From Delftia acidovorans NBRC 14950 (GTDB lineage: Bacteria; Pseudomonadota; Gammaproteobacteria; Burkholderiales; Burkholderiaceae_C), in NCBI RefSeq assembly GCF_001598795.1, contig NZ_BCZP01000004.1, forward strand, positions 90,001 through 122,000: a stretch of 32,000 bases of DNA, given 5' to 3'. Below are positions 884 through 15,722 of the stretch, one piece after another. Numbering within the stretch: position 1 is the first letter of the stretch; every line of letters begins with the position of its first letter. Both the position numbers and the translations under genes were made by a program. The notes beneath the pieces are model-generated. The model searched no databases. It worked only from the letters and a program-made list of their open reading frames with translations, and had not been told where the DNA came from.

Positions 884-3800
884 GTGGGGACTCCAGGGAG
901 GCGGGCTGGGCAGGCCCGGTGGAATGCGCAGGCGCATGCCCCGTCAGCGCGCGGCCCGAAAGCCGGCGCAGCGTGACGTAGAACACCGGCGTGAGGAACA
1001 GGCCGAACAGGGTCACGCCCAGCATTCCCGAGAACACGGTCACGCCCGTGGCCGCGCGCACCTCGCTGCCCGCGCCGCCACCGATGAGCAGGGGCACGGC
1101 CCCCGCGATGAAGGCGATCGAGGTCATGACGATGGGCCGCAGCCGCAGGCGGCAGGCCTGCAGCGCGGCATCGACGATGCCCACGCCGCGCAGCTCCAGC
1201 TCGCGTGCGAATTCCACGATCAGGATGGCGTTCTTGCAGGCCAGCCCCATCAGCACCACCAGGCCCACCTGCACGAAGACGTTGTTGTCGCCGCCGGCCA
1301 GCCAGACGCCGAACAGCGCCGCGCAGATGCACACGGGCACGATGAGGATCACGGCCAGCGGCAGCGTCCAGCTCTCGTAGAGCGCGGCCAGCACCAGGAA
1401 GACCAGCATCACGGCAATGGCGAAGACCACTGCCGCGGCGTTGCTCTGCTCCACCTGCTGGTAGCTCAGGTCGGTCCAGGCCAGCTCGATGCCGCGCGGC
1501 AGCGTGCGCTGCGCGATCTCCTGGAGCTTGGCCAGCACCTCGCCCGAGGACAGCACGCGCGGGTCGGAGTCGCCGATCAGATCGGCCGCCGGAAAGCCGT
1601 TGTAGCGCAGCACCGGGTCGGGGCCGAAGCTGGGCACCACGGTGACCATGGAGCCTATGGGCACCATCTCGCCGCGCGCATTGCGCGTGCGCAGACTGGC
1701 GATGTCCTCCACGGTCTGGCGGTGGTCCGCGTCGGCCTGCAGCATCACGCGCCAGACGCGGCCGAAGGCGTTGAAGTCGTTGACGTAGACCGATCCCAGG
1801 TAGGCCTGCAGCGTCTGGAACAGGTCGGTCAGCGCCACGCCCTGGGCCTTGGCCTTGGTGCGGTCCACCTTGACTTCCAGCTGCGGGATGTTGGACTGGT
1901 AGCTGCTGACCGGGTAGGTCATGCCCGGCGTTTTGGCGATCTCGGCCTGGAAGGCCTGCAGCGCCTGCTGCAGCGCCGCGTAGCCCAGGCCCGCGCGGTC
2001 CTGCAGGAACAGCGAGTAGCCCGAGCCGTTGCCCAGGCCCTGGATGGGCGGGGGCATCAGCGCATAGGCGAAGCCGCCCTCGATCTGCGAGAACTTCGCG
2101 CCCAGCTCGGCATTGATGGCCTCGGCGCTGCGCGTGCGCTCGCCGAAGGGCTTGAGCATGATGTAGGCGCTGGTCAGGTTGGGCGTGGTCGTGGACTGCA
2201 GCGCGTTGAAGCCCGCGAAGGCGGCGACCATGTCCACGCCTTCCACGCTTTTGGCGGCATCGACCATCTGGCGCGTGACCGCATCCGTGCGGTTCAGCGA
2301 AGCCCCCTCGGGCAGCTTGGCGCCGCCGAACAGGTACAGCTTGTCCTGCAGCGGAATGAAGCCGCCCGGCACGGCCTGGAACAGCACGGCCGTGCCCGCC
2401 AGCAGCGCCGCATAGACCGCGAACACCAGGCCCCGGCGGCGCAGCGAATGCCCCACCGAGTTCTGGTAGCCGTGGGCGCTGCGGTCGAAGAAGCGGTTGA
2501 AGGGCCGGAAGAGCCAGCCCAGGCTGCGGTCCAGCCCGCGCGCCAGCGGATCGCGCGGCGCGCCGCGCGGCTGCAGCAGCTTGGCCGCCAGCGCGGGCGA
2601 CAGCGTCAGCGAGTTGATGGCCGAGATCACCGTGGAGATGGCAATCGTCACGGCGAACTGCTTGTAGAACTGACCCGTCACGCCGCTGAGAAAGGCCATG
2701 GGCACGAAGACCGCGCACAGCACCAGGGCGATGGCGATGATGGGGCCCGAGACCTCCTTCATCGCCAGGTGGGCCGCCTCCAGGGGCGTGTGCCCTTCCT
2801 CGATGTAGCGCTCCACGTTCTCCACCACCACGATGGCGTCGTCCACCACGATGCCGATGGCCAGCACCAGGCCGAACAGGGTCAGCGTGTTGATGGAGTA
2901 GCCCAGCAGGTACAGCCCCGCGAAGGTGCCGACGATGGACACGGGCACGGCCAGCAGCGGAATGATGGAGGCGCGCCAGGTCTGCAGGAAGACGATGACC
3001 ACCAGCACCACGAGGATGACGGCCTCGATCAGCGTGCTCTGCACCGCCTTGATGGAGTCGCGCACGAAGACCGTGGGGTCCCAGACCGTCTCGAAGGCCA
3101 CGCCCTCGGGCAGGTCCTGGGACAGCTTGTCCATGGCCGCGTAGACCTGCTCGGCCACGCCCAGCGCATTGGCGCCGGGCGACAGGAAGATGCCGACGGC
3201 CGCCATGTTCTTCTTGTCGCTCCACGAGCGCAGCGTGTAGTCGCTGGCGCCCAGCTCGATGCGCGCCACGTCGGCCAGGCGCACGACCTGGCCGTCCGCA
3301 CCGCCCTTGAGCACGATGCTGCCGAATTCCTCGGGCGTCTTCAGCCGCCCGCGCACGTTGATGGACAGCAGCTTGTCCGCGCTCTGCGGACTGGGCTGCG
3401 CGCCCAACTGCCCGGCCGAGACCTGGATGTTCTGCTCGCGGATGGCGGCAATCACCTCGGGCGCCGTGAGCTGGCGCGCGGCCACCTTGTCCGGGTCCAG
3501 CCACACGCGCATGGCGTAGTCGCCCGCGCCGTAGATGCCCACGTCGCCAATGCCCGGAATGCGTGCCAGCACGTCCTTGATCTTGAGCGTGACGTAGTTG
3601 CGCAGGTACAGCGCGTCATGCTGGCCGTCCTGGGACACCAGGCCCACGTACATCAGAGGCGTGGACGACTGCTTTTGCGTGGTCACGCCGAACTGGCGCA
3701 CCTCCTCGGGCAGACGGCTCTGGGCCTGGCTGACGCGGTTTTGCACGCGCACGGCGGCCGTGTCGGGATCGACGTCGGGGCGGAAGGTGGAGACCACCTG

Positions 3801-4070
3801 CAGGCTGCCGTCGGACGCCGCGACCGACTTCATGTACATCAGGCCTTCGACGCCGTTGATGGCCTCCTCCAGCGGCACGGCCACCGACTCGGCGACCTCC
3901 TTGGGATTGGCGCCCGGATAGGTGGCGCGCACCACCACGCTGGGCGGCACGACCTCGGGATACTCGCCCACGGGCAGCTGCGGAATCGCGACCAGCCCCA
4001 CGGCGAACAGGATGATGGAGAGCACGACCGCGAAGATCGGCCGGTCTATGAAGAATTTGGAGAAGTCCAT
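876..4070 (-). CDS. RND multidrug efflux permease (HAE1 family, MexF-like), 1064 aa
   Basis: Part of track ORF 876..4304(-). The internal ATG at 4070 gives MDFSKFFIDRPIFAVVLSIILFAVGLVAIPQLPVGEYPEVVPPSVVVRATYPGANPKEV..., the canonical AcrB/MexF N-terminus. The length of about 1060 aa is typical. GGGAAG lies upstream of the ATG. Confidence 0.95.
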   Translation of the reverse strand: MDFSKFFIDRPIFAVVLSIILFAVGLVAIPQLPVGEYPEVVPPSVVVRATYPGANPKEVAESVAVPLEEAINGVEGLMYMKSVAASDGSLQVVSTFRPDVDPDTAAVRVQNRVSQAQSRLPEEVRQFGVTTQKQSSTPLMYVGLVSQDGQHDALYLRNYVTLKIKDVLARIPGIGDVGIYGAGDYAMRVWLDPDKVAARQLTAPEVIAAIREQNIQVSAGQLGAQPSPQSADKLLSINVRGRLKTPEEFGSIVLKGGADGQVVRLADVARIELGASDYTLRSWSDKKNMAAVGIFLSPGANALGVAEQVYAAMDKLSQDLPEGVAFETVWDPTVFVRDSIKAVQSTLIEAVILVVLVVIVFLQTWRASIIPLLAVPVSIVGTFAGLYLLGYSINTLTLFGLVLAIGIVVDDAIVVVENVERYIEEGHTPLEAAHLAMKEVSGPIIAIALVLCAVFVPMAFLSGVTGQFYKQFAVTIAISTVISAINSLTLSPALAAKLLQPRGAPRDPLARGLDRSLGWLFRPFNRFFDRSAHGYQNSVGHSLRRRGLVFAVYAALLAGTAVLFQAVPGGFIPLQDKLYLFGGAKLPEGASLNRTDAVTRQMVDAAKSVEGVDMVAAFAGFNALQSTTTPNLTSAYIMLKPFGERTRSAEAINAELGAKFSQIEGGFAYALMPPPIQGLGNGSGYSLFLQDRAGLGYAALQQALQAFQAEIAKTPGMTYPVSSYQSNIPQLEVKVDRTKAKAQGVALTDLFQTLQAYLGSVYVNDFNAFGRVWRVMLQADADHRQTVEDIASLRTRNARGEMVPIGSMVTVVPSFGPDPVLRYNGFPAADLIGDSDPRVLSSGEVLAKLQEIAQRTLPRGIELAWTDLSYQQVEQSNAAAVVFAIAVMLVFLVLAALYESWTLPLAVILIVPVCICAALFGVWLAGGDNNVFVQVGLVVLMGLACKNAILIVEFARELELRGVGIVDAALQACRLRLRPIVMTSIAFIAGAVPLLIGGGAGSEVRAATGVTVFSGMLGVTLFGLFLTPVFYVTLRRLSGRALTGHAPAHSTGPAQPASLESPHA

Positions 4071-4083
4071 GGTGCTTCCCGGT

Positions 4084-5298
4084 TCACTGCGCGGCCACGG
4101 CCGGCGCCTTGGCCACCGCCGCCTGCCCGTCGCCGGGAGCAGGCTTGGGGCTGATCGGCATGCCGGGGTAGTAGATGCGCTGCAGGCCGCCGACCACGAG
4201 GCGGTCGCCCGCCGCCAGCCCCTTGTCCACCACGCGCCGGCCATCGACCATGCGGCCCAGCTCCAGGTCGCGGCGCTCGGCCTTGTTGCCCTCGCCCACC
4301 ACATAGACGTACTTGCGGTCCTGGTCGGTGAGCACGGCCTTGTCGTCGATCAGCAGCGTCTGCCGCTCGCCGCCCACGCCCTGCGCGTCTTGCAGTTGCA
4401 CGCGCGCGAACAGGCCCGGCGTCAGCAAGCGGTCGGGATTGGGCAGGCGGGCGCGCATGCGCACCGTGCCCGTGCCCGCGTTGAGCTGGTTGTCGGTGAA
4501 GTCCAGGCTGCCCGCATGCGGAAAGCCTTCGTCGCCAGCCAGCCCCACACGCACGGGCCGCTGCACGCCGGGCCGCCCCTTGGTGTCCTTGGCGGCCTGC
4601 TGCTGCCGCAGGAAGCTGTGCTCGTCCGCATCGAAGTAGACATACACCGGGTCCTGCGAAACCACGGTGGTCAGCACGCTCTGGTCGGCCTGGGCCAGGT
4701 TGCCCACGGTGAGCAGGGCGCGGCCCGCGCGGCCGGAGACCGGCGCGCGTACCTCGGTGAAATCCAGGTTGAGCCGGGCTGCCGCCAGCGCGGCCTCGGC
4801 GGCGCGCACCTGGGCGGCGCTCTGGGCCAGGGCACCGGCGCGCGTATCGGCTTCCTCGCGCGAGACGGCATGCTCTGCCACCAGCTGGCGGGCGCGCTGG
4901 TCCTGGGTGCGGGCCAGCGCGGCGCCTGCGCGCGTGCGCTCCAGCTCGGCCTCGGCGCTGGCCAGGGCGGCGCGGTAGGGCCTCTGGTCGATCACGAACA
5001 GCAACTGGCCCTTCCTGACCTCCTGCCCCTCGCTGAAGGCAATGCGCTCGATATAGCCCGACACGCGCGGGCGCAGTTGGACCGACTCCACGGCATCGAT
5101 GCGGCCGTTGAACTCGTCCCAGACACGCACGCTGGTCGGCACGACCTCGCTCACCAGCACCTCGGGCGCAGGCGGCGGGCCGTCGCTGGCATGGGCATCG
5201 CCCACGGCCTGCGGGCGGCAGCCGGCAAGCAGGGCCAGCGCCGCCAGGGCGCCTCCGAACAGGGCACGCCGCAACGGCGGCGGTGGAAGAACGGGCAT
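4084..5298 (-). CDS. RND efflux periplasmic adaptor (membrane fusion protein, MexE-like), 404 aa
   Basis: Part of track ORF 4084..5421(-). The ATG at 5298 is preceded by AAGGAG. The N-terminus MPVLPPPPLRRALFGGALAALALLAGC is a lipoprotein signal. HlyD/MFP hallmarks are present (RPRVSGYIERIAFSEGQEVRKGQLLFVID, coiled-coil hairpin, LDFTEVRAPVSGR). The gene lies 13 nt upstream of the RND gene. Confidence 0.9.
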   Translation of the reverse strand: MPVLPPPPLRRALFGGALAALALLAGCRPQAVGDAHASDGPPPAPEVLVSEVVPTSVRVWDEFNGRIDAVESVQLRPRVSGYIERIAFSEGQEVRKGQLLFVIDQRPYRAALASAEAELERTRAGAALARTQDQRARQLVAEHAVSREEADTRAGALAQSAAQVRAAEAALAAARLNLDFTEVRAPVSGRAGRALLTVGNLAQADQSVLTTVVSQDPVYVYFDADEHSFLRQQQAAKDTKGRPGVQRPVRVGLAGDEGFPHAGSLDFTDNQLNAGTGTVRMRARLPNPDRLLTPGLFARVQLQDAQGVGGERQTLLIDDKAVLTDQDRKYVYVVGEGNKAERRDLELGRMVDGRRVVDKGLAAGDRLVVGGLQRIYYPGMPISPKPAPGDGQAAVAKAPAVAAQ

Positions 5299-5419
5299 GG
5301 ATCGACTCTCCTTGAGGGGGATGGGCAAGGCCCTGCTGCCGGGGCTGCGGCGGGGCCGGAAAAAGGGGCGGGACCGCAGGCTCTGGAGGCCTTCCAGGCG
5401 GTTGCTCACAATGGGTTGC

Positions 5420-5450
5420 ATTCTTCAAGTTCAAGTGAACTTGAAGTCAT
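5420..5450 (-). promoter_or_regulatory. SoxR-box (MerR-type) promoter reading toward the RND efflux operon
   Basis: The minus strand reads ATGACT-(19 nt)-AAGAAT. The spacer contains the palindrome TTCAAGT-nn-ACTTGAA (5430-5445), which is close to the E. coli soxS operator CCTCAAGTTAACTTGAGG. The box starts at position 5 of the -35 hexamer and ends 3 nt before the -10, the same geometry as the soxS promoter. A 19-bp spacer is the MerR-family hallmark. Confidence 0.6.
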
Positions 5451-5717
5451 GATCCGCGCGCAAAGACACCACGAAAATTGAGGACGGTTTGCCGGGGATA
5501 TCGCTGGCCGGATCGGACAAGCGCAGCGGCAATTGACCAGGAACGACCTGAGAAGACCTGGACAGGCGCGCACAGACGGACACACGCGCGTTGCCGCACC
5601 TGCAGGACGCCACCACTACACTGCAAGGCCATCTGACCCAGGGTGGCGGCCAGGTACCGCCAGAAACCGCCGACGAACGCCGACACCCTCCATGGAAAAG
5701 CACTGGATGCCTGCCGC

Positions 5718-8700
5718 ATGAATCTGCTTGCTCACGCCACACTGTCCCGGCCACAGGGACGCAACGAACGCATCAGCACCGTGAGGGTGCTGGCCCTGGA
5801 GATGCCGGGCGGCGACACCACGGCCACCGCAGCGCGCCATGTCGTGACCTTGCAGGTCACGCAATTGAAGGCCGGCGTCGTCGCGCAGGTCGATGACAGC
5901 ACGCTCACCCCCTTGCCCCAGGCGCTGGAGCCTGCACGCCAGCGCGCGCTGGCCTACCTGCGCCAGCGCCTGGGCGCGGGCGATGTGCTGCAGTCCCATG
6001 AGGGCTTTGCGGAGCTGGATGCTGAAGCAGGCCCGGCGCCCTCCCCCGGCCAGGCCCCGGGACAGGCCACGGTGCCGCCAGGCCTGTCGGAGTCGGCCTT
6101 GCAGGCCGGCGCCATTTCCGCCCTGTGCAAACGCCTGGACGGCAGCGCCTGGCGGCTGATGCCCTCGGGCCAGCAGGCCCGGCTGGTGTGGCGGCTGGCC
6201 GAGTATGCGGACCCCGCGCGCGGCGGCGCCGCCCAGCGCCTGCTGCATGCCCAGGTTCCACGCCTGGTGGCGCTGCTGGGCACGGGGGACGATCTGCTCG
6301 ACTACTGCCTGGCCTACCTCATCGGGCGCCTGGGCGATGGCGGCGCGGCGGTGGCCCTGCAGGCGCTCTCGCAACGCGGCACCAGCGAGGCCACGCGCGA
6401 TCTGGCGCACCAGGCCTGGCTGGCCCTGCTGGAGCCGCAGGAACGCCAGGCGGCGCTGCAGGAGTACCAGGCGCAGTGGGCCGGGATCCCCCCGCAGAAA
6501 AACGGCCCGAAAGAGGACGGACCGCAGGCCGAACAGGCCTTCTTCCAGGCACTTGGGCCACAGGCGCTGCTGGCGGCCGATGCGCTGGGCGCGCACGACG
6601 GCGCCATCCACCAGCAGCTGCTGGCCTGGATGGAGCGCATCCCCTTCACGCGCGCCTGGTGGCCGGCCCTGCGGCGCATCCACAAGCGTGCCGAGTGGCG
6701 GCGCGACCACGCCCTGCTGGCCGTGCTGCATGCGCGCTTCGATGGCCCGCGCGACGAGGGTGCCGTCTTCAGCCGCGACACCTCGCTGTACCTGCGCCTG
6801 CGCGGCTGGCGCCAGCTGCGGCGCATGGCCTCGGCCGACCACAGCGAAAGCGCCGCCCATGCCGCAGCCCTGCTCCAGGCCATGGACCGCTGCTGCGCGG
6901 GCCTGCCTGCCTCGCGCTCCGGCCGCCTGCCCGAATCGCGCTGGCTGCTCGCCGCCCGGCTGCTGCTGCCGCGCTGGCCGCAACTGCATGCCTCGGCCCG
7001 CGCCCACACCTGGTACACCGACGAGCCGCTGGACCTGCAGCAGCTGCCCGCGCAGCGCGTGGAAGGACTTTCGGCCATGTGGGACGCCCACCCCGGGCAA
7101 CTGCTGCAACTGGTGGGCCGTTCGCAGTCCACGCTGCTGCTGTGGTCGCTCACGCGCGCCCTGCAGGACCAGAAGGCCTTTCTGGACGGCCTGGATGCAG
7201 CGGCCACCGCGCCGCTGCTGCACAAAACCTATGCACCGGCGGCTGCGCTGGGCCTTCAGATCGCGCAGCAGCGCATGGTCTCGCTGACCGACGATGCGGC
7301 GCGCCGGCCCTGGCTGCTGGCGCTTGCGCAATGCGGCGACGGGCCTGCCGCCAGCTACCTGGGCGCCTGGCTGTCGCGTGACCGCGCAGGCGCCGCGCGC
7401 GATGCCGAACTGGTGGCCGCCCTGCTGCTGTCACCGGCCGCCAGCTCGCGCACCCAGGGCCTGGCCCTGCTGTTTTATGCCGATGGTGCAGCCGTGGCCC
7501 TGGCCTTGCTGGCGGCGCTGCCCACGCTGGACGCCGAAAGCCCCGCGCTGGCCGATATCCGCGATGCGGTGCAGGCGCTGTTCGATGGCAACGGCCCGCT
7601 GGCTGCGCAGGCCGCCAGCGTCCCGGCCCCACCGCTGCACCACCTGCTGGCGCATTCGGTGACGGCGCTGGTGGAGATGGCCACCGCCTGGCTGCTGGCA
7701 CACCCGCAGGGCCTGCGGACCCTGCCGCCGGCGGCGTTGCGCGGGCTGCTGGAATCCGAGGAACCTGCGCGCATGGCCTGCGGCATACGGCTCATGGGCA
7801 GCCTGGCCGATGACCTGCTGTGCGAGCAGGCCGCCATGCTGGCCGAATTCGCCGTATCGCCGCATGCCGCCTTGCGCGCAGCGGCAGCGCCCCTGGTCGA
7901 GCGCCTGGCCGGCACCCCCGTCTACAACACGCGCTGCAACGCCCAGATCGCCGAGCGCCTGCACGAAGTGCTGTTCCGCGCGGAAAAGGCCGAAGGCGTC
8001 CACGACGCGGCGCTGCGGCTGCTCACCGGCCCGCTGGCCGCCGTGGCCCCGGCCCGCGATGCCTCGGGCATCTGGCGCGCCCTGCAGGCTCAGGCCAAGG
8101 GCGCACAGCGCTACGGCGTCTGGGGCCTGAAGGCGCTGGACCTGCAGGTCTACACGCTGCGCCAGTGGTCCACGCTGGCCCGGCATGCCGATGCCGACGT
8201 GCGCGCCTTGAGCCGCCAGAGCATCGATGCGCAGCTCACCCCCATGGACCGGACCCTGCCCGAGCAGGCCGAACAGCTGCTGCCGCTGGCTGACGCCCTG
8301 TTTGCCGACACGCAGCAGTACGCACGCGAGATGTTCGGCCAGCGGCTGCCGGACGGCGCCCTGTCGCCGCAGCTGCTGCTCGGCTGGGTCGATCACGCCC
8401 AGCCCTGGGTGCAGGCCCTGGGCCGCCAGCGGCTCGCGCAGCACATGAGCGCGCCCGAGGCCAGCCTCTTCCTCACGCGCCTGGCCCAGCACCCCGCCAC
8501 CAGCGTGCAGCTGTTCGTCACGCAATGGCTGCTCGCCCTGCCCGACGAGCCCGCGCCGCAGCGCGCGGCGCGCCTGCAGGAGCTGCAGCCCTACTTCCTG
8601 GCCGTGCTCAGCCAGGTGCACCGCGCGCGCGCCAGCAAGACACGCGTGCTGCATTTCCTGCGCAGCCAGGTGCAGGCGCCCGAGACCGCCGCCGTGGTGG

Positions 8701-8861
8701 CAGCCATCTTTGCGCGGCAGGTGGTCAGCGCCAGCCATGCCGACCAGCCCGACTATGTGGCCGGGCTGCGCGACATCGTGCAGCGCCATCCCCAGCTGGC
8801 GCAAAGCTTCATGCAGCCCCTGGCGGCGGAGCGGCGCGGCCAGGCCCCGTCTTCAACCTGA
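5718..8861 (+). CDS. Large Ala/Leu-rich alpha-helical-repeat protein (ARM/HEAT-like by composition); putative retron accessory protein
   Basis: Track ORF 5643..8861(+) is a single uninterrupted 3.2-kb frame with high third-position GC. The antisense ORFs are Arg/Gly-rich junk. The start is uncertain: GTG 5643, ATG 5718 (chosen) or ATG 5802. I recognise no catalytic motif. The repeat-like helical character is inferred from composition only. The gene sits 31 nt upstream of, and co-directional with, the SWIM gene. Confidence 0.6.
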   Translation: MNLLAHATLSRPQGRNERISTVRVLALEMPGGDTTATAARHVVTLQVTQLKAGVVAQVDDSTLTPLPQALEPARQRALAYLRQRLGAGDVLQSHEGFAELDAEAGPAPSPGQAPGQATVPPGLSESALQAGAISALCKRLDGSAWRLMPSGQQARLVWRLAEYADPARGGAAQRLLHAQVPRLVALLGTGDDLLDYCLAYLIGRLGDGGAAVALQALSQRGTSEATRDLAHQAWLALLEPQERQAALQEYQAQWAGIPPQKNGPKEDGPQAEQAFFQALGPQALLAADALGAHDGAIHQQLLAWMERIPFTRAWWPALRRIHKRAEWRRDHALLAVLHARFDGPRDEGAVFSRDTSLYLRLRGWRQLRRMASADHSESAAHAAALLQAMDRCCAGLPASRSGRLPESRWLLAARLLLPRWPQLHASARAHTWYTDEPLDLQQLPAQRVEGLSAMWDAHPGQLLQLVGRSQSTLLLWSLTRALQDQKAFLDGLDAAATAPLLHKTYAPAAALGLQIAQQRMVSLTDDAARRPWLLALAQCGDGPAASYLGAWLSRDRAGAARDAELVAALLLSPAASSRTQGLALLFYADGAAVALALLAALPTLDAESPALADIRDAVQALFDGNGPLAAQAASVPAPPLHHLLAHSVTALVEMATAWLLAHPQGLRTLPPAALRGLLESEEPARMACGIRLMGSLADDLLCEQAAMLAEFAVSPHAALRAAAAPLVERLAGTPVYNTRCNAQIAERLHEVLFRAEKAEGVHDAALRLLTGPLAAVAPARDASGIWRALQAQAKGAQRYGVWGLKALDLQVYTLRQWSTLARHADADVRALSRQSIDAQLTPMDRTLPEQAEQLLPLADALFADTQQYAREMFGQRLPDGALSPQLLLGWVDHAQPWVQALGRQRLAQHMSAPEASLFLTRLAQHPATSVQLFVTQWLLALPDEPAPQRAARLQELQPYFLAVLSQVHRARASKTRVLHFLRSQVQAPETAAVVAAIFARQVVSASHADQPDYVAGLRDIVQRHPQLAQSFMQPLAAERRGQAPSST

Positions 8862-8892
8862 GCGCCGCAACAAGGCACGGAGTCGATCGGAC

Positions 8893-10620
8893 ATGGAATT
8901 TCGCTATCAGTACTACGGCAGCACGCAGGTCAACGACACGGCGGCCGAGCAGGCCTTCTCCTTCGCGCCCGACCTGCTGCGCCCACCCACACGCTTCGAC
9001 GGCCTGCTCCGGCGCGACGGCCCGGCCTACCTGCAGGTGCGCGAAGGGCTGTCCGCGCTGCACAGCGTGGTGGTCAGCGACCTGCGCACGCGCGGCCGCG
9101 ACAAGACGGCCTACCGCGAATGGCTGCAGGAGCACGAAGCGCAAATGCTCGCCACCTTCATGGCCGACACCGGCGGCGCCCAGGCGCGCGCCAAGGAAAT
9201 CAGCGCCGAACTCAAGAACCTGCGCGAGACCCGCAACCAAGTGCTCTCCCCCTTCTACAAGGCCCAGCGCAAGTACTTCGACTGGCTGTTCGTGGCCAAC
9301 CGCGATGCGTGGTATGTGCTCGACCCCGTGATCACCGTGCACCCGGACCGGCTGCTGTTCGAGGCCTTCAGCCAGGACGAATCGAGCTACTGCGCGGTCA
9401 GCATCCGGCACGAGGCCTTCGAGCATGCGGGCGAGCGCATCTGCGGCACCACCAACATCGATTACTCGGCCAGCCTCTACGAAGAATTCCAGAAGATCCG
9501 CAACTACCGGGACACGCGGCTGACGCTGGACCCGGCCGGCTTTGCCGTGCAGGTGGGCGGTGACCCCGCGCTGCGCGAGGAAAAGATCGACCTGCCCGAC
9601 AGCTGGCTGCGCGGCTTCGTGCAGGTCTCCAGCGCCATGGCCCTGCCCGCCACCGTGCTGGAGCTGCACCCCATGGACCTGTTCAACATCTGCGCGCGGC
9701 TGCGTGCCCGGCGCGAGCGCCACGGCCCGCGCGCGCTGCGCTTCGAGCTGGCGCCGGGACAGCCGCCCGCCGTGGTGTTCGAGCCCTGGGAGGAGCTCCT
9801 GGCCACCCGGCGCTCGCACGTCGTCAGCGATGCCATGGGCACGGGCGGCGGCACCATCCGCCTGTGGGGGCGCCGCCGCCTGCTCACGCTGGAGCGGCTG
9901 ATCTCCCAGGCCACGCGCGTGCGCGTGCACCTGCTGGGCAGCGGCATGCCCAGCTTCTGGGTGATCGAGCTGGGACTGGTCACGGTCACGCTGGGCCTGT
10001 CTGGCTGGAGCGCCAACGACTGGGCCGCCAGCGCACGCTTTCACCTGATGGCGCCGCAGGCCGAGGTCACGCCTGCCCAGGTCGAGGCCGTGGGCCGGCA
10101 GCTGCAGTCGTGCTGGCAGGCCGGCGCGCAGGATCTGGCCCAGGCCACGGGCCTGGCCCCGGCCCAGGTGCACACGGCCATGACACGCTGGATGCAGGCC
10201 GGGCGTGCGGTCTACGACCTGGACGCCGGGCGCTACGCCTGGCGCGAACTGCTGCGCGAGCCGCTGACGGCGCAGCAATTGCAGCCCGCCAACCCCGAGG
10301 AGGACAAGGCGCTGGCCCTGGTGCGCGGCAAGGCCATTGCCCCGCCGCGCATCGACCGCAAGGACGGGTTCAGCCGCATCACCGGCCAGATCCCGCGCGC
10401 CGACGGCAAGCGCCTGTTCGACACCCAGCTCGAACTCGATGCCGACGAGCGCCTGACCGATGCGCGCTGCAGCTGCAACCACTACCAGCAGTACCGGCTG
10501 CGCCAGGGGCCCTGCGAGCACATGATTGCGCTGCGCCTGGTGGCGCAGCCCCAGCTCGATGCCGCCCGCCAGCCGACCGGCCCGCAGATGAAGGCCGCAG
10601 GACAAGGAGAAATCGCGTGA
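8893..10620 (+). CDS. SWIM zinc-finger protein (WH-SWIM-like), 575 aa; putative retron accessory protein
   Basis: Part of track ORF 8710..10620(+). The ATG at 8893 (MEFRYQYYGSTQV...) has ACGGAG about 12 nt upstream. The C-terminus ...DARCSCNHYQQYRLRQGPCEHMIALRL matches the SWIM signature CxCxnCxH. Confidence 0.85.
   Translation: MEFRYQYYGSTQVNDTAAEQAFSFAPDLLRPPTRFDGLLRRDGPAYLQVREGLSALHSVVVSDLRTRGRDKTAYREWLQEHEAQMLATFMADTGGAQARAKEISAELKNLRETRNQVLSPFYKAQRKYFDWLFVANRDAWYVLDPVITVHPDRLLFEAFSQDESSYCAVSIRHEAFEHAGERICGTTNIDYSASLYEEFQKIRNYRDTRLTLDPAGFAVQVGGDPALREEKIDLPDSWLRGFVQVSSAMALPATVLELHPMDLFNICARLRARRERHGPRALRFELAPGQPPAVVFEPWEELLATRRSHVVSDAMGTGGGTIRLWGRRRLLTLERLISQATRVRVHLLGSGMPSFWVIELGLVTVTLGLSGWSANDWAASARFHLMAPQAEVTPAQVEAVGRQLQSCWQAGAQDLAQATGLAPAQVHTAMTRWMQAGRAVYDLDAGRYAWRELLREPLTAQQLQPANPEEDKALALVRGKAIAPPRIDRKDGFSRITGQIPRADGKRLFDTQLELDADERLTDARCSCNHYQQYRLRQGPCEHMIALRLVAQPQLDAARQPTGPQMKAAGQGEIA
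10468..10521 (+). other. SWIM zinc-finger motif C526-x-C528-x12-C541-x-H543 within the 8893-10620 CDS
   Basis: Codons TGC 10468, TGC 10474, TGC 10513 and CAC 10519 are in frame with the ATG at 8893. Confidence 0.8.
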
Positions 10621-10649
10621 CCCGCCTCAATTGCTCTACACTGCCACGC

Positions 10650-10876
10650 GGAGCGACGCGCAGGCTCTTGCAATCCGGGTGGTGTTTCGCCACCCTTGTG
10701 AACTGCCGTTTCATGCACCACGGGCGCCGTTTTCACTGTGCCACCCCAGCGACGGTATGCGTTTTCCTGAGTGGCTTGCCACAAGCGAAACACGCATACC
10801 GTCGCGGGGTGGCGTCGAGCGAACAGCTCCCGTCCCGTGAGCCCTGCGGGCTCTTCGACGAGAAGCGCGTCGCTCC
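10650..10876 (+). ncRNA. Putative retron msr-msd non-coding RNA (template/primer for msDNA)
   Basis: GGAGCGACGCGC (10650-10661) is the exact reverse complement of GCGCGTCGCTCC (10865-10876), like retron a1/a2 repeats. Between them are a hairpin at 10677-10695, a long imperfect hairpin at 10741-10812 (7+14+3 bp with two bulges) and a nested hairpin at 10813-10860. The element ends 51 nt before the RT ATG, and no credible ORF lies in the 307-nt spacer. The exact ends and the branching G are not determinable from sequence. Confidence 0.6.
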
Positions 10877-10927
10877 ATTTCTTTGCCCGCCGCACAGCGG
10901 CCGGGCCCGCCTTGCCGGGGTGGCCGC

Positions 10928-12904
10928 ATGAGCCAGCCGCAACCCACACGCGCCGAGATCTACGAGCGCATCAAGGCCTCCAGCAAACAGGAAGTCATCC
11001 TCGACGAGATGCAGCGCCTGGGCTTCTGGCCCAAGGGCGAGGGACAGCCGCAGCTGGCCGCCGCCCACATCCAGCGCGAGGGCGAGCTGCAGCGCGAGCT
11101 GGCCGAGCTGCGCCAGCAGATCGCCGTGCGCCAGAACCCCGAGCGCGCATTGCGCCAGATGCGCAAGGAGCGCATGCAAAAGGCGCTGGCCCAGCGCGAG
11201 GAAACCAAACGCCGCCAGGCCCAGGAGCGCCACGACAAGGCGCTGGCCTGGCATGCGAAGCGGGCCACGCACGTGGGCTATCTGGGCCCCGGCGTCTCCG
11301 CTGCCCTCCAGGGGCCGCAGGCCGGTGAGGCACCGCCTGCTGCCGGGGAACGCCGGCAGGCCGACCCGCAAAGGCTGGCCCGGCATGGCCTGCCGGAACT
11401 TGCCGATGCAGCGCAGCTGGCCGATGCCATGGGCATCACCGTGGCCGAGCTGCGTTTCCTGGGCTTTCACCGCGAGGTGGCCCGCACCCACCACTACCAC
11501 TCGTTCACCCTGCCAAAGAAGACCGGCGGCGAGCGGCTGATCTCCGCGCCCATGCCGCGCCTCAAGCGCGCGCAGTACTGGGTGCTGGACAACATCCTCG
11601 CCAAGGTGCCCGCGCACGATGCCGCGCACGGCTTCCTGGCCGGCCGCTCCATCGTGAGCAATGCCGCGCCGCATGCGGGCCACGACGTGGTCATCAACCT
11701 GGATGTGAAGGACTTCTTTCCCAGCATTGCCTTCGGCCGCATCAAGGGCGTGTTCTGTCATCTGGGCTATGGCGAGGCCATGGCCACCCTCCTGGCCCTG
11801 CTGTGCAGCGAAAACCGCGCCCAGGCCTGGCAGGTGGATGGCGAGAAGCTCTTCGTCGGCGGCAAGGCGCGCGAGCGCGTGCTGCCCCAGGGCGCGCCCA
11901 CCAGCCCCATGCTCACCAACCTGCTGTGCCGCCGCCTGGACCGCCGCCTGCTGGGCCTGGCCAGGCAGCTGGGCTTTGTGTACACGCGCTATGCGGACGA
12001 CCTGACCTTCTCCGCCTCGGGCGAGGCCGCGCGCGACAACGTGGGCCGGCTGCTGGGCCGCGTGCGCTGGATACTGCGCGACGAAGGCTTCACGCCCCAC
12101 CCCGACAAGGAGCGCGTGATGCGCAAGGGCCGCCGCCAGGAGGTCACGGGGCTGGTGGTGAACGCGGACAAGCCCGGCGTATCGCGCGAGACGCGCAGGC
12201 GCCTGCGCGCCGCCCTGCACCGCGCCACGCAGGCCAGCGCCGGCAAGCCGGCGCACTGGCAGGGGCAGGCAGCCCAGCCCTCGCAATTGCTGGGACTGGC
12301 GCAGTTCGTGTACCAGGTCGACCCCGTGCAGGGCGGTCCGCTGCTGGGCCAGGCCCGCCAGCTCACGCGCAGCCCCATCGACCGCGCCAACGATGCCCTG
12401 CTGCAGGCCAGCCGGCAGGACCGCGCGGCGGCGCGTGCGCAGCCGCCCGCAAGCGCACAGTTCCGGCGTCTGGCCGCCAGCGGGCAGGCGCCTGCGCTGG
12501 CCAGCGGCAAGACGTGGTGGCAGCCGGCCGAGCCGGCGGCACCCGTGATCGAGAAGACCGACCAGCAGCGGCGCGAACAGCGGCTGCAAGAGCGCGAGGC
12601 CGCACGCGCCCAGGCAGCTGCGGCCGCACGGCCGGCCGTGGACACGCCGCAGCAGCAGCCCGCACAGGCGCCGAGCCCCGACGCACAGGCACCCGGCCCA
12701 TCGCCGATGCCCGGCCTGCTGACCTACTGGGCGCAGATCGTGATCTGCTTCTTGCTGGGCACGGTGTTCCAGGCGCGCCTGATCACGCTGATCGGCATCG
12801 TGCTGGTCCTGCTCCTGCGCTACCGGCGCATACGGCGCTGGGATGTCTTTGCCGGTGCGATGGTGGTGGCCGTGCTGCTAGGCCTGGGGTTGCGGCTGTC
12901 GTGA
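10928..12904 (+). CDS. Retron-type reverse transcriptase with N-terminal coiled-coil-like extension and C-terminal transmembrane segments, 658 aa
   Basis: Part of track ORF 10883..12904(+), starting at ATG 10928 (MSQPQPTRAEIYERI...). RT motifs: HYHSFTLPKKTGGERLISAP, NAAPH (codons 245-249), NLDVKDFFPSI, LPQGAPTSP, YTRYADDLTF (YADD at 11990-12001) and RQEVTGLVVN (VTG at 12143-12151). NAxxH and VTG are regarded as retron-RT signatures. Confidence 0.88.
   Translation: MSQPQPTRAEIYERIKASSKQEVILDEMQRLGFWPKGEGQPQLAAAHIQREGELQRELAELRQQIAVRQNPERALRQMRKERMQKALAQREETKRRQAQERHDKALAWHAKRATHVGYLGPGVSAALQGPQAGEAPPAAGERRQADPQRLARHGLPELADAAQLADAMGITVAELRFLGFHREVARTHHYHSFTLPKKTGGERLISAPMPRLKRAQYWVLDNILAKVPAHDAAHGFLAGRSIVSNAAPHAGHDVVINLDVKDFFPSIAFGRIKGVFCHLGYGEAMATLLALLCSENRAQAWQVDGEKLFVGGKARERVLPQGAPTSPMLTNLLCRRLDRRLLGLARQLGFVYTRYADDLTFSASGEAARDNVGRLLGRVRWILRDEGFTPHPDKERVMRKGRRQEVTGLVVNADKPGVSRETRRRLRAALHRATQASAGKPAHWQGQAAQPSQLLGLAQFVYQVDPVQGGPLLGQARQLTRSPIDRANDALLQASRQDRAAARAQPPASAQFRRLAASGQAPALASGKTWWQPAEPAAPVIEKTDQQRREQRLQEREAARAQAAAAARPAVDTPQQQPAQAPSPDAQAPGPSPMPGLLTYWAQIVICFLLGTVFQARLITLIGIVLVLLLRYRRIRRWDVFAGAMVVAVLLGLGLRLS
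12725..12901 (+). other. Predicted hydrophobic (2-3 TM) C-terminal tail of the RT
   Basis: The C-terminal sequence is YWAQIVICFLLGTVFQARLITLIGIVLVLLLRYRRIRRWDVFAGAMVVAVLLGLGLRLS. It has three hydrophobic stretches separated by Arg-rich loops, and follows a Pro/Ala/Gln-rich low-complexity linker. Confidence 0.6.
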
Positions 12905-12909
12905 TGTTC

Positions 12910-12944
12910 GCGGGGCCGCAGGCCTCAGAGGCCTGCGGCCCCGC
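12910..12944. terminator. Bidirectional GC-rich hairpin between the convergent RT and AraC genes
   Basis: GCGGGGCCGCAGGCC (12910-12924), a TCAGA loop, then GGCCTGCGGCCCCGC (12930-12944) form a perfect 15-bp stem. It starts 6 nt after the RT stop and overlaps the last codons and stop of the AraC gene. There is no clear U-tract. Confidence 0.55.
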
Positions 12945-13758
12945 CCGCCACGGGTGCACTGCGCAGCGCCAGGAAGCGGCGCGGCGAGGTGCCCACCGCC
13001 TTGCGGAACATGGTCACGAAGGCGGGTGCGCTCTCGTAGCCCAGGGCATCTGCCACGGTCTGTATGCGCAGCCCCTCGGACAGCTTTTGCAGTGCGGTGA
13101 GCACATGCAGCTGGCGGCGCCACTGGTTGACCGTAAGCCCGGTCTCGGCCAGGAACAGCCGCGTCATGCTGCGCTCGCTCATGCCGATGCGCTGGGCCCA
13201 GTCGGCCAGCCGTGCCTGCAGCTGCGGCTGCTCGCACAGGGCGTTGGTCATGCGGCGCAGGCGCCGGTCGTGCGGCAGGGGCAGGTGCAGTCCTTCGGGC
13301 TGCGCCGCCTGGATCTCGTCGAGCAGCACCTGCATGAGCCGGCCATCGCCGCTGTCGGGCTCGTAGTCCTGCGGCAGACCCTGCACGCGGTCCAGCAGCG
13401 CACTGAGAAAGGGCGAGACGGCCAGCGCATGGCAGGGTCCGGGCACGGGGCGCACGGCCCCTGCCTCGACAAAGACCACGTAGCCGCTGGCCGCACCGCT
13501 GCAGCTGACCCGGTGCAGCGTGCCGCCCGGAATCCAGGCGGCGCTGCGCGGCGGCACCACGCAGACGCCCGCATCGGTCTCCAGCGTGATCAGCCCCGCA
13601 TGGGTGACCATGAGCTGGCTCTTGCGGTGGGCATGGAAGTTCATCCCCCAGTCGCCGGGGCCCGACCGCATGGGCAGGACGATCACGGGACGGTCCACAT
13701 GGTCGGGGTCCCACCTCTCGGGCAGGACTTTGAGCAGGGCTGAATCCACGGCATTCAT
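12925..13758 (-). CDS. AraC-family transcriptional regulator (N-terminal cupin-like sensor, C-terminal HTH), 277 aa
   Basis: Track ORF 12925..13758(-). The C-terminal region ...LADWAQRIGMSERSMTRLFLAETGLTVNQWRRQLHVLTALQKLSEGLRIQTVADALGYESAPAFVTMFRKAVGTSPRRF is a canonical AraC double HTH. Confidence 0.9.
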   Translation of the reverse strand: MNAVDSALLKVLPERWDPDHVDRPVIVLPMRSGPGDWGMNFHAHRKSQLMVTHAGLITLETDAGVCVVPPRSAAWIPGGTLHRVSCSGAASGYVVFVEAGAVRPVPGPCHALAVSPFLSALLDRVQGLPQDYEPDSGDGRLMQVLLDEIQAAQPEGLHLPLPHDRRLRRMTNALCEQPQLQARLADWAQRIGMSERSMTRLFLAETGLTVNQWRRQLHVLTALQKLSEGLRIQTVADALGYESAPAFVTMFRKAVGTSPRRFLALRSAPVAGGAAGL

Positions 13759-13789
13759 GGTGTTTCTCTCAGTTCATGTCAATCGGTCA

Positions 13790-14173
13790 TCAATCGGACC
13801 CGAGCAGCTCCCGTGCACGCTGCTGCGCCTCCTCGGGGGAGGCCACCAGCAGCATGGGATAGCCCCAGGCCTTGCCGAACATCTGTGCGAAGGCCTCGGC
13901 CTCGGCGCGCTTTTGCGCATCGGGCTCGGCGTGGACCAGGGCGCGCACCAGGCTTTTGAGCTCGGGGCGGCGGGCCTTCATCCACAGCACGACCTGCTTG
14001 CGCTCCTCAGGTGAGCGCTCCTCCTGGGCCATGTCGCCGTCGCTGAAGAAGACAAAGGCCTGGCCGCGGGCCAGCAGGGCCGAGAAGTCCTCCAGCAAGC
14101 GGTCCACGGGCACGGCCTTGTCGCGCTCGTAGCCCATGCGGACCAGGGGAAAGCTGCTGCTGTCGATGTACAT
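13790..14173 (-). CDS. Hypothetical protein, 127 aa (no family recognised)
   Basis: Part of track ORF 13790..14458(-). The ATG at 14173 (MYIDSSSFPLVRMGYERDK...) has a strong GGAGG 6 nt upstream. Third-position GC is high. The gene lies 31 nt upstream of the AraC gene on the same strand and downstream of the second SoxR-type promoter. Confidence 0.6.
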   Translation of the reverse strand: MYIDSSSFPLVRMGYERDKAVPVDRLLEDFSALLARGQAFVFFSDGDMAQEERSPEERKQVVLWMKARRPELKSLVRALVHAEPDAQKRAEAEAFAQMFGKAWGYPMLLVASPEEAQQRARELLGSD

Positions 14174-14346
14174 GGAAACCTCCGGCCGATGCCATTCAAT
14201 ACAAATGAGACCCATTACTGTATGAATGAACGGCAGCTGCGTCATTGCAGCACTCAGCCAAAGAATTTCGCAGTCCGGCCAGGACGCTCGCATGGGCGGT
14301 ACAGACCCGGTTGCCCTGTTCCTGCGCTTTCGCTCAGAATGGCCGC

Positions 14347-14377
14347 ATTCTTCGAGTTCAAGTGAACTTGAAGTCAA
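14347..14377 (-). promoter_or_regulatory. SoxR-box (MerR-type) promoter reading toward orf127-araC, divergent from soxR
   Basis: The minus strand reads TTGACT-(19 nt)-AAGAAT with the palindrome TTCAAGT-nn-ACTTGAA at 14357-14372. It is nearly identical to the module at 5420-5450 and ends 20 nt upstream of the soxR ATG. Confidence 0.6.
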
Positions 14378-14396
14378 GCCACAAAGGAAAGCCACC

Positions 14397-14900
14397 ATGA
14401 AAACCGAGGATGATCCACTGCTCAGCATCGGCGACGTGGCGCAGCGCAGCGGGGTCAAGGCCTCGGCGCTGCGCTTTTACGAGTCGCTGAACCTGATCGA
14501 GTCCGTGCGCAGCGCCAGCGGCCACCGGCGCTACCACCGCTCGTCGCTGCGGCGCATCGCCTTCGTGGTGTTCGCCCAGCGCATCGGCTTCACGCTGGAG
14601 GAGATCGCCGAGCAGCTGGCCAAGCTGCCCAGCCGACATGTCCCCACGGGCGGGGACTGGCAGAAGATGTCGCGGGTCTGGAAGCAGCGGCTGGACGACC
14701 GCATAGGCGAGCTGCAGCGGCTCAGCGAGAGCCTGGACCAGTGCATTGGCTGCGGTTGCCTGTCGCTGCGCCACTGCGTGCTGCACAACCCCGGCGACCT
14801 GTGCGCACAGAACGGCCCGGGGCCGCGCCGCTGGCTGGGCGACCCGCCGCCCGTGGCCATGGGCGGGCCCTGCCCGGGCCACTGCCACGACGAAGGCTGA
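14397..14900 (+). CDS. soxR: Redox-sensitive transcriptional activator SoxR (MerR family, [2Fe-2S])
   Basis: Part of track ORF 14226..14900(+), starting at ATG 14397 after AAAGGAAAG. The MerR HTH is LSIGDVAQRSGVKASALRFYESLNLI. The SoxR cluster motif CIGCGCLSLRHC (CX2CXCX5C) is present. Confidence 0.9.
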   Translation: MKTEDDPLLSIGDVAQRSGVKASALRFYESLNLIESVRSASGHRRYHRSSLRRIAFVVFAQRIGFTLEEIAEQLAKLPSRHVPTGGDWQKMSRVWKQRLDDRIGELQRLSESLDQCIGCGCLSLRHCVLHNPGDLCAQNGPGPRRWLGDPPPVAMGGPCPGHCHDEG

Positions 14901-15722
14901 TCAGGACACGCGCCGTGTCGTGACGAAGTCCAGCACCGCCTGCAGCATGCGCTGCAGCGTGGGCTGGATCTGTTCGGCGCGCTCGGGCAGGTAGTCGAAG
15001 GGCAGCGCTTCCTGCATGTAGCTGCACTGCGTCATCTCCAGCTGCACGGCGTGGATGCCGGCCTCGGGCTGGCCGTAGTGGCGCGTGATGTAGCCGCCTG
15101 TGAAGCGGCCGTTGAGTATGGCGGTGTGGCCCGGCGCGGTCTGCGCAATGGCCAGCAGATGCTCGGCCAGCTCCAGCGCGCAGCTCGTGCCCTTGCCGGT
15201 GCCCAGGTTCAGGTCGGGCAGCTTGCCTTCGAAGAAACGCGGCAGCACCGAGCGGATGGAGTGCGCGTCCCACAGCGCCACGGTGCCGTGCACGGCCTTG
15301 AGGCGGTCCAGCTCGGCGCGCAGCTGTGCGTGGTACGGGCCCCAGATGGCCTCGCGGCGCGCGGCGATTTCGGCGTCCGCGGGCACATCGGCCGGGTCGG
15401 CGTACAGCGGCGTGTCGTCGAAGGTGTCCACGGGGCACAGGCCGGTGACGCTCTGGCCCGGGTAGAGGCTGGCGCCATCGGGCGGACGGTTCAGGTCCAC
15501 CACATAGCGCGAATGCGTGGCCACCAGGATGGAGGCGCCCATGGCCTTGGCGAACTCGTACAGGCGCGGCAGGTGCCAGTCGGTGTCGGGCACGTGGCGG
15601 GCTTCCTCGGTCAGGCGCGCGGCGATGTCGGGCGGCACATGGGTGCCCGCATGCGGCATGGAGATCAGCAGCGGCGCCGTGCCCTGGTGGAAGACGAAGG
15701 GAGGGGGAGCGGTATCGGTCAT
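14901..15722 (-). CDS. hutG: N-formylglutamate amidohydrolase (deformylase)
   Basis: Part of track ORF 14901..16067(-), starting at ATG 15722 (MTDTAPPPFVFHQGTAPLLISMPHAGTHVP...DTDWH...LWDAHSIRS...LPDLNLGT...GGYITRHYG). It closely resembles Pseudomonas HutG (FGase family). Confidence 0.9.
   Translation of the reverse strand: MTDTAPPPFVFHQGTAPLLISMPHAGTHVPPDIAARLTEEARHVPDTDWHLPRLYEFAKAMGASILVATHSRYVVDLNRPPDGASLYPGQSVTGLCPVDTFDDTPLYADPADVPADAEIAARREAIWGPYHAQLRAELDRLKAVHGTVALWDAHSIRSVLPRFFEGKLPDLNLGTGKGTSCALELAEHLLAIAQTAPGHTAILNGRFTGGYITRHYGQPEAGIHAVQLEMTQCSYMQEALPFDYLPERAEQIQPTLQRMLQAVLDFVTTRRVS

Follow-up and report, generated by a model that had tools for sequence, protein, structure and literature searches.

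A duplicated, predicted SoxR promoter and a dead soxR start beside a type XIII retron in Delftia acidovorans

The locus and its two SoxR-type promoters

The 32,000-nt stretch of Delftia acidovorans NBRC 14950 analyzed here (contig NZ_BCZP01000004.1, positions 90,001 to 122,000; hereafter the window) carries, from left to right, a minus-strand RND efflux operon, a plus-strand retron cassette, the minus-strand genes for an AraC-family regulator and for orf127, and the plus-strand gene of the redox sensor SoxR. A SoxR-type promoter module is present twice, ahead of the efflux operon (copy 1) and within the soxR/orf127 intergenic region (copy 2), and the remnant of a soxR start lies beside copy 1. 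The subject of this report is the relationship between these two copies and the segment that they bracket.

Copy 1 occupies positions 5404–5449 (46 nt; 5404–5450 with the -35 hexamer) and copy 2 positions 14332–14376 (45 nt; 14332–14377 with the -35 hexamer), both on the minus strand, as defined by repeat alignment and operator search. The sequence of copy 2, GCTCAGAATGGCCGCATTCTTCGAGTTCAAGTGAACTTGAAGTCA, lacks the third G of copy 1, and the alignment comprises 41 identical columns out of 46, four substitutions and one 1-nt gap. The initial annotation had quoted copy 1 correctly and had placed both copies in the same orientation, which the alignment bears out; copy 2 had been given an extra G and begun one base early, at 14331, and the count of 42 identical positions out of 46 with four differences is to be corrected to the alignment above. 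The 3' part of the repeat (32 nt), GCATTCTTC[A/G]AGTTCAAGTGAACTTGAAGTCA, is identical at 31 positions, the single difference (A5427 versus G14354) falling in the spacer beside the -10 element. With up to three mismatches allowed, this 32-mer occurs at only two places in the window (0.00 expected from 100 shuffles), and the operator core TCAAGTNNACTTGA occurs in the window only at copy 1 and copy 2. The repeat is thus real and far above chance level. Leftward of the copies, the similarity between the two leaders past GCTCA[C/G]AATGG is not significant, which leaves the duplication without a definite left-hand breakpoint.

On the minus strand, copy 1 consists of a -35 element ATGACT (5450–5445), a 19-bp spacer and a -10 element AAGAAT (5425–5420), and copy 2 of TTGACT (14377–14372), a 19-bp spacer and AAGAAT (14352–14347). 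The -35 element of copy 1 is TTGACT in other strains. At both sites an 18-bp SoxR box, CTTCAAGTTCACTTGAAC, overlaps the junction of the -35 element and the spacer; box 1 (5429–5446) and box 2 (14356–14373) are identical to each other at 18/18 positions. Both agree with the consensus CCTCAAGTTAACTTGAGG at 14 of 18 positions, that consensus being of Escherichia coli and the host here Delftia; the verified mfsA box of Stenotrophomonas maltophilia likewise scores 14/18 against the E. coli consensus and has the same 19-bp geometry (PMC4411124). An inverted repeat, an over-long spacer and a cognate SoxR encoded nearby are therefore present at both sites. A generic sigma-70 scan with spacers of 16–18 bp called no promoter in the interval, as expected for 19-bp spacers, and the calls of a terminator scan of the interval fall within genes.

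The soxR gene (14397–14900, plus strand) encodes a protein of 167 aa that matches the SoxR model TIGR01950 with 185 bits against a cutoff of 117 bits, and its translation carries the [2Fe-2S] motif CIGCGCLSLRHC, of the CX2CXCX5C type. Delftia tsuruhatensis NBRC 16741 encodes a SoxR with 100% identity to it, and other proteins are 86–96% identical to those of that strain. Box 2 ends 23 nt ahead of the soxR ATG, and the predicted leader from copy 1 to the efflux operon is about 114 nt long.

Taken together, these features make it likely that each copy is the core of a SoxR-activated promoter of the MerR type, both being directed leftward and related by descent. If they work like characterised SoxR promoters, the 18-bp box in the over-long 19-bp spacer would be bound by a SoxR dimer; oxidation of its [2Fe-2S] clusters by redox-cycling compounds would untwist the spacer and allow RNA polymerase to start transcription. 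Copy 1 would then drive the MexE/OqxA-like RND efflux operon and copy 2 would drive orf127-araC, with the operator of copy 2 overlapping the soxR start region. SoxR binding and induction at both sites are inferred from this promoter architecture. Autorepression of soxR from the same site is implied by the closeness of box and soxR start, here as in S. maltophilia. Two points weigh against this assignment, namely that the promoters are called by sequence analogy and that in this strain the -35 element of copy 1 reads ATGACT in place of TTGACT.

The initial annotation had already seen that the repeat continues beyond the operator, but the homology is longer than it claimed. Starting 12 nt past copy 1, the plus strand carries AAAGACACCACGAAAATTGAGGA (5462–5484), that is AAAGACACC-ACG-AAAATTGAGGA, while soxR in relatives starts with AAAGACACC-ATG-AAAATTGAGGA. 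This fossil of a soxR ribosome-binding region and start codon matches the soxR start of a Comamonas locus (L006) at 22 of 23 positions (z=9.8), and the ATG to ACG change is found in all six aligned retron-bearing loci (6/6), which represent both deep Delftia lineages. The related segment, made up of copy 1, a 12-nt gap and the fossil, therefore extends over at least 81 nt (5404–5484). Since a promoter needs neither the ribosome-binding region nor the first codons of a neighboring gene, copy 1 descends from a real soxR-efflux junction. On this sequence evidence, the dead soxR start directly attests a duplication of the junction and identifies copy 1 as the duplicate, or what remains, of an entire control region of divergent soxR and efflux genes, not as a convergently evolved operator.

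The fossil also bears on whether the two promoters could be independent, resembling each other through selection on operator and promoter elements only. The near-identical part is indeed the functional core, and the flanks have diverged. The SoxR regulon of Pseudomonas aeruginosa, a non-enteric bacterium, includes several SoxR-box promoters, and such multiplicity is usual in non-enteric regulons (PMC4411124 for the latter). Selection of this kind would not account for a 22/23 match to a 23-nt soxR start that has no selectable promoter function, nor for the conserved GCTCA[C/G]AATGG outside the operator and the hexamers, and a second copy is found in no retron-less relative. Independent origin is thus very improbable, being contradicted by a fossil that is present in 6/6 aligned two-box loci. 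The first of the two readings offered by the initial annotation, two paralogous SoxR-dependent promoters, accordingly describes the present-day anatomy well and fails only where it would imply separate origins.

A conserved block, TGGCCGGATCGGACAAGCG, follows at 5505–5523 on the plus strand; it is 19/19 identical in L001 (D. tsuruhatensis NBRC 16741), L004 and L095, and occurs only in loci that have copy 1. The fossil is conserved at 23/23 or 21/23 positions across the deep Delftia lineages and the block at 19/19, compared with an identity of 0.78 at 4-fold degenerate sites of the neighboring genes (window versus L004/L095). The fossil region contains no conserved open reading frame (ORF), a 16-nt indel breaking the frame, and no covarying RNA pair. 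Fossil and block thus exceed 4-fold sites in conservation though they are neither coding nor visibly structured. Between the block and the CTACACT motif of the retron lie 90–130 nt that differ in length and sequence among strains.

Genes of the efflux operon, the orf127-araC module and the retron

Because the G+C content of 70% makes ORF lists noisy, the gene map was derived from codon-position G+C content and hidden Markov model (HMM) searches. The first gene of the efflux operon (4084–5298, minus strand) encodes a periplasmic adaptor of 404 aa that passes the TIGR01730 cutoff and has its best matches with the OqxA and MexE models. It is followed by the gene for an OqxB/MexF-like RND permease of 1064 aa (876–4070, minus strand; ACR_tran E=0; NF000282 1393 bits, above cutoff) and by that for a NodT/OprN-like outer-membrane efflux channel (2–943, minus strand; Pfam OEP, TIGR01845), which runs off the window. 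Leader 1 (5299–5403, minus strand), the predicted 5' untranslated region of the operon, evolves fast and is unalignable between the deep Delftia lineages.

The AraC-family regulator (12925–13758, minus strand) comprises 277 aa with a cupin and a helix-turn-helix domain (Pfam HTH_18, HTH_AraC, AraC_binding). The adjacent orf127 (13790–14173, minus strand) is always paired with the araC gene in homologue comparisons and has no match in Pfam, NCBIfam or PADLOC. Upstream of it, leader 2 (14174–14331, minus strand) consists over its orf127-proximal part of about 110 nt, AATGACGC ... TCTCATTTGTATT, that aligns with two contigs (L115, L119) as the module's own conserved upstream region. The orf127-araC module, at 40–55% identity, is found in unrelated proteobacterial contigs lacking soxR and a SoxR box, which marks it, from sequence comparison, as a separate two-gene unit. 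Its positions there are 9390–10807 in L115 and 9400–10807 in L119, the counterpart in the window being 12925–14331. In Delftia and Comamonas, an AraC-family regulator has thus been placed under a predicted SoxR promoter, formally as in the enteric soxRS system.

Three plus-strand genes and an msr-msd non-coding RNA appear to make up a complete type XIII retron. The first gene (5718–8861) encodes a protein of 1047 aa with WGR-like and HEAT/ARM repeat regions (PADLOC WGR_XIII, E=9e-216), the second (8893–10620) a SWIM zinc-finger protein of 575 aa (PADLOC SWIM_XIII, E=3e-202; Pfam SWIM) and the third (10928–12904) a reverse transcriptase of 658 aa (PADLOC RT_XIII, E=1e-175; Pfam RVT_1), for which RT_XIII is the best PADLOC model, far ahead of the remaining retron reverse transcriptase models. 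Type XIII corresponds to the Mx162/Mx65 retron family (Mestre et al., 2020; PMC7736814). The msr-msd lies between the SWIM and reverse transcriptase genes; its 12-nt a1 sequence (10650–10661) pairs with a2 (10865–10876) and encloses a long hairpin. Together with a CTACACT motif at 10636–10642, the element spans 10636–10876 on the plus strand and folds with -134.9 kcal/mol (z=-6.7). A scan of positions 5000–15000 with Rfam gave chance-level matches only and no retron RNA family.

Another CTACACT, containing the -10-like TACACT, lies upstream of the first retron gene (5616–5622, plus strand) and is as far left as the homology with retrons from other contexts reaches. The motif also precedes the first retron gene in Diaphorobacter (L093, ~9906–9912; L094, ~9907–9913) and in Delftia sp. 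PS-11 (L187, ~9948–9954), and is probably the retron's own promoter element, used twice, for the first gene and for msr. The 5' leader of the retron operon differs in length among strains: in D. acidovorans MMO-42 (L002, 1250–1290) three to four tandem GGTATCGGCA-like units stand between CTACACT and the first retron gene, as against one related unit in the window.

At the other end of the cassette, a perfect 16-bp G+C hairpin (12910–12944; -40 kcal/mol, z about -5.4), readable on either strand, lies between the reverse transcriptase stop and the araC end. It is situated between these convergent genes, overlaps the araC stop codon and has no T-run, so that a function as a two-way transcription barrier is conceivable.

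Arrangements of the interval in related genomes

The comparison covered 80 loci, one genome per species, supplemented by exact-protein look-ups and a metagenome scan. The interval, bounded by a conserved S-methyltransferase gene on one side and by the hut operon on the other, was found in four states. In state A, seen in Acidovorax, several Comamonas and Luteibacter, soxR is directly divergent from the efflux operon and there is one box. In state B (Comamonas testosteroni and L003, a metagenome-assembled genome of the Delftia clade), soxR is divergent from orf127-araC, the efflux operon follows on the same strand 165 nt further, and the one box is next to soxR. State C, with the retron between araC and the efflux operon and with two boxes, comprises the window and 21 further loci from at least two deep lineages. 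State D, found in Delftia sp. PS-11, has the retron alone in the methyltransferase-hut interval, next to a Tae4-Tai4 island, without box, pump or soxR.

Two boxes were present in all loci that have the retron, araC/orf127, the adaptor gene and soxR (22/22). None of the ten retron-less loci with soxR and the adaptor gene has two boxes; eight have one, and two Luteibacter loci of state A have no box passing the match threshold. Retron loci in other contexts lack a box altogether (0/9); homologous cassettes whose first gene is 61–66% identical occur box-less in unrelated contexts in C. composti and Diaphorobacter. A single module copy accompanies soxR beside the mexE-like gene in L005, L006, L007, L009 and L010, as the initial annotation had expected of retron-less relatives if the junction had been duplicated. 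The finding that it thought would speak for mere promoter paralogy, both copies around orf127-araC in relatives without the retron, was not made: L003, L008, L098, L099 and L100 keep orf127-araC, lack the retron and have one module copy, next to soxR. The unit that varies with the retron consists of box 1, the fossil, about 130 nt and the retron, roughly positions 5404–12924.

In L187 (Delftia sp. PS-11, CP181346.1, 9811–19084) and in the metagenome contig L179, the retron stands by itself between the S-methyltransferase gene and hutG; beyond it comes an AT-rich island that encodes an ORF of 82 aa and the type VI effector/immunity pair Tae4-Tai4. In this interval, L187 and L179 have neither an efflux operon nor orf127-araC, and soxR, its fossil and the SoxR box are absent as well. 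The methyltransferase-hut interval thus appears, from these arrangements, to be a rearrangement hot spot with the retron as its most persistent occupant.

Direct repeats around an 8.9-kb segment might be taken for attachment sites or target-site duplications of a retron-carrying mobile element, the more so as the cassette occupies different chromosomal contexts across genera and its SWIM protein has been suggested to be a possible derivative of a DEDE transposase (Mestre et al., 2020; PMC7736814). Yet the matches of the nine genes in Pfam, NCBIfam and PADLOC include no integrase, recombinase or transposase, as the initial annotation had stated, and there is no tRNA. Terminal inverted repeats at the cassette ends were looked for in four contexts: none was found in the window, C. 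composti and Diaphorobacter sp. HDW4A, and the one significant match, in D. aerolatus (L094), overlaps a gene start. The repeats moreover enclose araC and orf127, which remain when the retron is absent, so that their ends do not coincide with the variable unit, and the cassette elsewhere has no box copy. Finally, the G+C content and 4-fold-site divergence of the retron equal those of its flanks. A mobile element bounded by the repeats is, in view of all this, very improbable.

Composition was also the means by which the initial annotation had proposed to profile the interval, along with k-mers and codon usage. The G+C part of that comparison was carried out and does not mark the interval as foreign: values are 0.68–0.75 in the retron and 0.68–0.75 in the efflux and hut-side flanks. 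With G+C content equal on both, the compositional test is uninformative on foreign origin. Identity at 4-fold sites between the two deep Delftia lineages is 0.76–0.83 in the retron and 0.72–0.86 in the flanks, and this equality indicates that the arrangement is old and has been inherited vertically through long co-residence. Mestre et al. (2020; PMC7736814) reported the same mode of inheritance for retrons of type XIII.

Origin of the duplication

The order of events is given here as inferred. The order that we prefer would begin with soxR beside the pump, continue with insertion of the orf127-araC module into the leader, and end, on the Delftia stem, with a retron rearrangement that would have duplicated no less than 81 nt of the control region. 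That the duplication came with the retron rearrangement in a state-B-like ancestor is a tentative choice, which we rate at somewhat less than an even chance.

Several observations count against this order. Leader 1 does not resemble the spacer between araC and the efflux operon in relatives without the retron (z<1), yet L003 and Comamonas show 85% conservation of this spacer, a pattern that a simple insertion into it does not readily explain; no remains of the state B spacer were found near the reverse transcriptase/araC junction. At two positions copy 1 keeps the ancestral base (CTCACAATGG, AAAGACACC), and the derived base is common to copy 2 and the only copy of L003. In the hutG+hutF tree, the retron-less L003 groups with the retron-bearing L004 and L095 (86.5% bootstrap), and the soxR tree also nests it among retron-bearing lineages, so that its retron-less state could be a secondary loss or an exchanged allele. 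The araC+orf127 tree places L003 outside. These trees, which conflict in the polarity that they imply, point to a mosaic region.

Signs of exchange are also seen among close relatives. Between the window and L001, 4-fold-site identity is 0.94–0.98 in soxR, hutG, hutF and orf127, compared with 0.81–0.86 in araC and the genes for the reverse transcriptase, the WGR protein and the adaptor, and 0.92 in the SWIM gene. The greater divergence of the araC-to-adaptor segment (4084–13758) than of the soxR/hut flank suggests allelic exchange by recombination, and two alleles of the araC-to-pump segment appear to circulate in Delftia.

The second reading of the initial annotation, that soxR and the efflux operon were once directly divergent and were parted with duplication of the junction, can be taken literally. 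One block made up of the retron, araC, orf127, leader 2, the box and the 5' end of soxR would then have entered a state-A-like ancestor and broken its soxR, by recombination with foreign DNA that shared soxR on the right side, or by integration of a circle within the first soxR codons, leaving the old box and a truncated soxR start behind as copy 1. The direct arrangement is widespread (Acidovorax, Comamonas, Luteibacter) and is likewise that of Burkholderia RND-9 (bioRxiv 10.1101/2021.12.01.470848); a break within soxR would leave precisely such a fossil; leader 1 is weakly similar to the leaders of direct arrangements (z=3.9, 2.9) and unlike the araC-efflux spacer; and the ancestral bases retained in copy 1 are lost from copy 2. 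However, Comamonas and L003, which lack both the retron and copy 1, have orf127-araC with an orthologous leader 2 (z=56), and its presence at the same place makes the block separable and the link between soxR and orf127-araC older than the retron or independent of it. A donor with retron, araC, orf127 and soxR minus copy 1 was not found among the compared loci. No recombination breakpoint that would signal a foreign origin of copy 1 was visible in the adaptor, RND and channel genes, L003 being closest along the whole operon. We therefore regard entry as one block as rather unlikely. Of the original proposal, the duplicated soxR-efflux junction tied to the retron stands; the grouping of retron, araC and orf127 into one inserted block does not, since orf127-araC is found at this position in genomes lacking the retron, and the retron by itself at other sites. 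The remaining weight lies with other routes, for example an older two-soxR stage or an exchange between alleles.

State A itself may not be original everywhere. In the Comamonas loci L006, L009 and L010 (~9770–9800), where soxR is beside the pump, the leader is AT-rich and about 300 nt long, and ATTCAATAAAGATAGC within it is similar to the stretch immediately ahead of orf127. This likeness makes it conceivable that these loci have secondarily lost orf127-araC and have not simply kept the original arrangement.

Predicted regulation and comparison with known systems

The efflux genes of state B lie head to tail with orf127-araC across a spacer of 165 nt, in which no terminator-like site or stable structure was found. 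To judge from this layout, the pump can be reached from the single SoxR promoter or controlled via a 67-nt block in the spacer that is 85% identical between L003 and C. testosteroni. The block is located at 8412–8478 in L003, 8407–8473 in L008 and 11306–11372 in L098, is absent from retron-bearing genomes and is conserved far above neutral expectation; it may serve to regulate the pump, perhaps as a target of the AraC-family protein.

In state C, the efflux operon is separated from box 2 by 7.5 kb of opposite-strand retron and by the 16-bp G+C hairpin. With this route closed, copy 1 is the only SoxR-type promoter able to serve the pump, and it probably keeps the pump under direct SoxR control. 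In our interpretation, this sole service to the pump is also why both cores have stayed nearly identical amid decayed surroundings.

Copy 1 might instead act mainly on the other strand, as a relic soxR promoter that drives or gates the retron, the efflux operon having another promoter. The soxR promoter and the divergent target of S. maltophilia have a -10 region in common, and positions -4 to +14 of soxR lie within the box (PMC4411124); the same geometry applied here predicts a rightward RNA start near 5432. The conservation of the fossil (23/23) and of the 5505–5523 block (19/19) across deep lineages, against 0.78 per 4-fold site, agrees with such a role. The retron, however, has its own conserved CTACACT motifs, also in genomes without a SoxR box; the 90–130 nt between block and motif vary among strains; and the fossil region has no conserved RNA structure or ORF. 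This function is accordingly improbable, if not negligibly so. We give a similarly low chance to a two-way box 1, in which the leftward efflux promoter would coexist with a fossil soxR promoter sending a SoxR-occupied, autorepression-type transcript through the fossil and 5505–5523 into the retron, and the supposition that a relic rightward promoter could start RNA near 5432 that reaches the retron is, by the same analogy, just as doubtful. If true, a two-way box 1 would put a retron with relatives active in anti-phage defence under the influence of a redox-stress sensor.

Several consequences follow from the locus as read here. It offers a datable example of a regulon surviving a disruptive insertion, in which a copy of the sensor's control region, dead start codon included, stays with the pump. 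It predicts that Delftia induces a MexEF/OqxAB-like multidrug pump directly via SoxR upon exposure to redox-active metabolites. Delftia is an opportunistic pathogen and a frequent contaminant. Such induction would be relevant to antibiotic tolerance, a relevance shown for Burkholderia RND-9 (bioRxiv 10.1101/2021.12.01.470848). The locus also places a vertically inherited type XIII retron within a stress regulon, so that stress-regulated retron expression becomes testable. The literature on SoxR in Delftia that was found consists of resistance-gene listings, with no study of this locus.

The closest known counterpart of the efflux part is RND-9 of the Burkholderia cepacia complex, in which soxR adjoins a three-gene RND operon with a SoxR box in its promoter (bioRxiv 10.1101/2021.12.01.470848). 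An RND-9-like arrangement is found here in the retron-less L005–L007, L009 and L010, and is preserved in the window as copy 1 with the soxR fossil. Unlike in RND-9, the live soxR of the window is 8.9 kb away, the operator is duplicated, and the retron and the araC module lie between; the pump is MexEF/OqxAB-like by HMM. The promoters themselves resemble soxR-mfsA of S. maltophilia, with the box between -35 and -10, the 19-bp spacer, the 14/18 match and a soxR start shortly beyond the box (PMC4411124). There, one site serves one MFS pump gene, whereas the window has two predicted sites and two operons.

The E. coli soxRS system is similar in that soxR is divergent from the gene of an AraC-family regulator under a SoxR-box promoter. 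The AraC-family protein of the window, in contrast, is full length (277 aa) with a cupin domain, its gene follows orf127, and the module also exists without soxR (L115, L119). Its match with the SoxS model is weak (E=9e-4, below cutoff), and a SoxR-AraC cascade is a conjecture. In P. aeruginosa, the SoxR regulon comprises mexGHI-opmD, PA2274 and PA3718 (Palma 2005; Dietrich 2006/2008). The likeness lies in a few SoxR-box promoters, including that of an RND pump, and in a soxR divergent from one small target gene. The P. aeruginosa boxes are not known to be mutual duplicates with an attached gene fossil.

The retron shares with the type XIII retrons Mx162, Mx65, Ne144 and Sa163 the combination of RT_XIII, SWIM_XIII and WGR/HEAT_XIII in one operon and an msr-msd with a1/a2 just upstream of the reverse transcriptase, and its flank-like divergence fits their vertical inheritance (PMC7736814). 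It differs in its betaproteobacterial host, Delftia, and in being embedded in a predicted SoxR regulon. A SoxR-box promoter, a SoxR-adjacent RND pump and a type XIII retron are all of known kinds; the novelty lies in how they are arranged here, in the gene fossil and in a connection between retron and redox regulon that can be tested.

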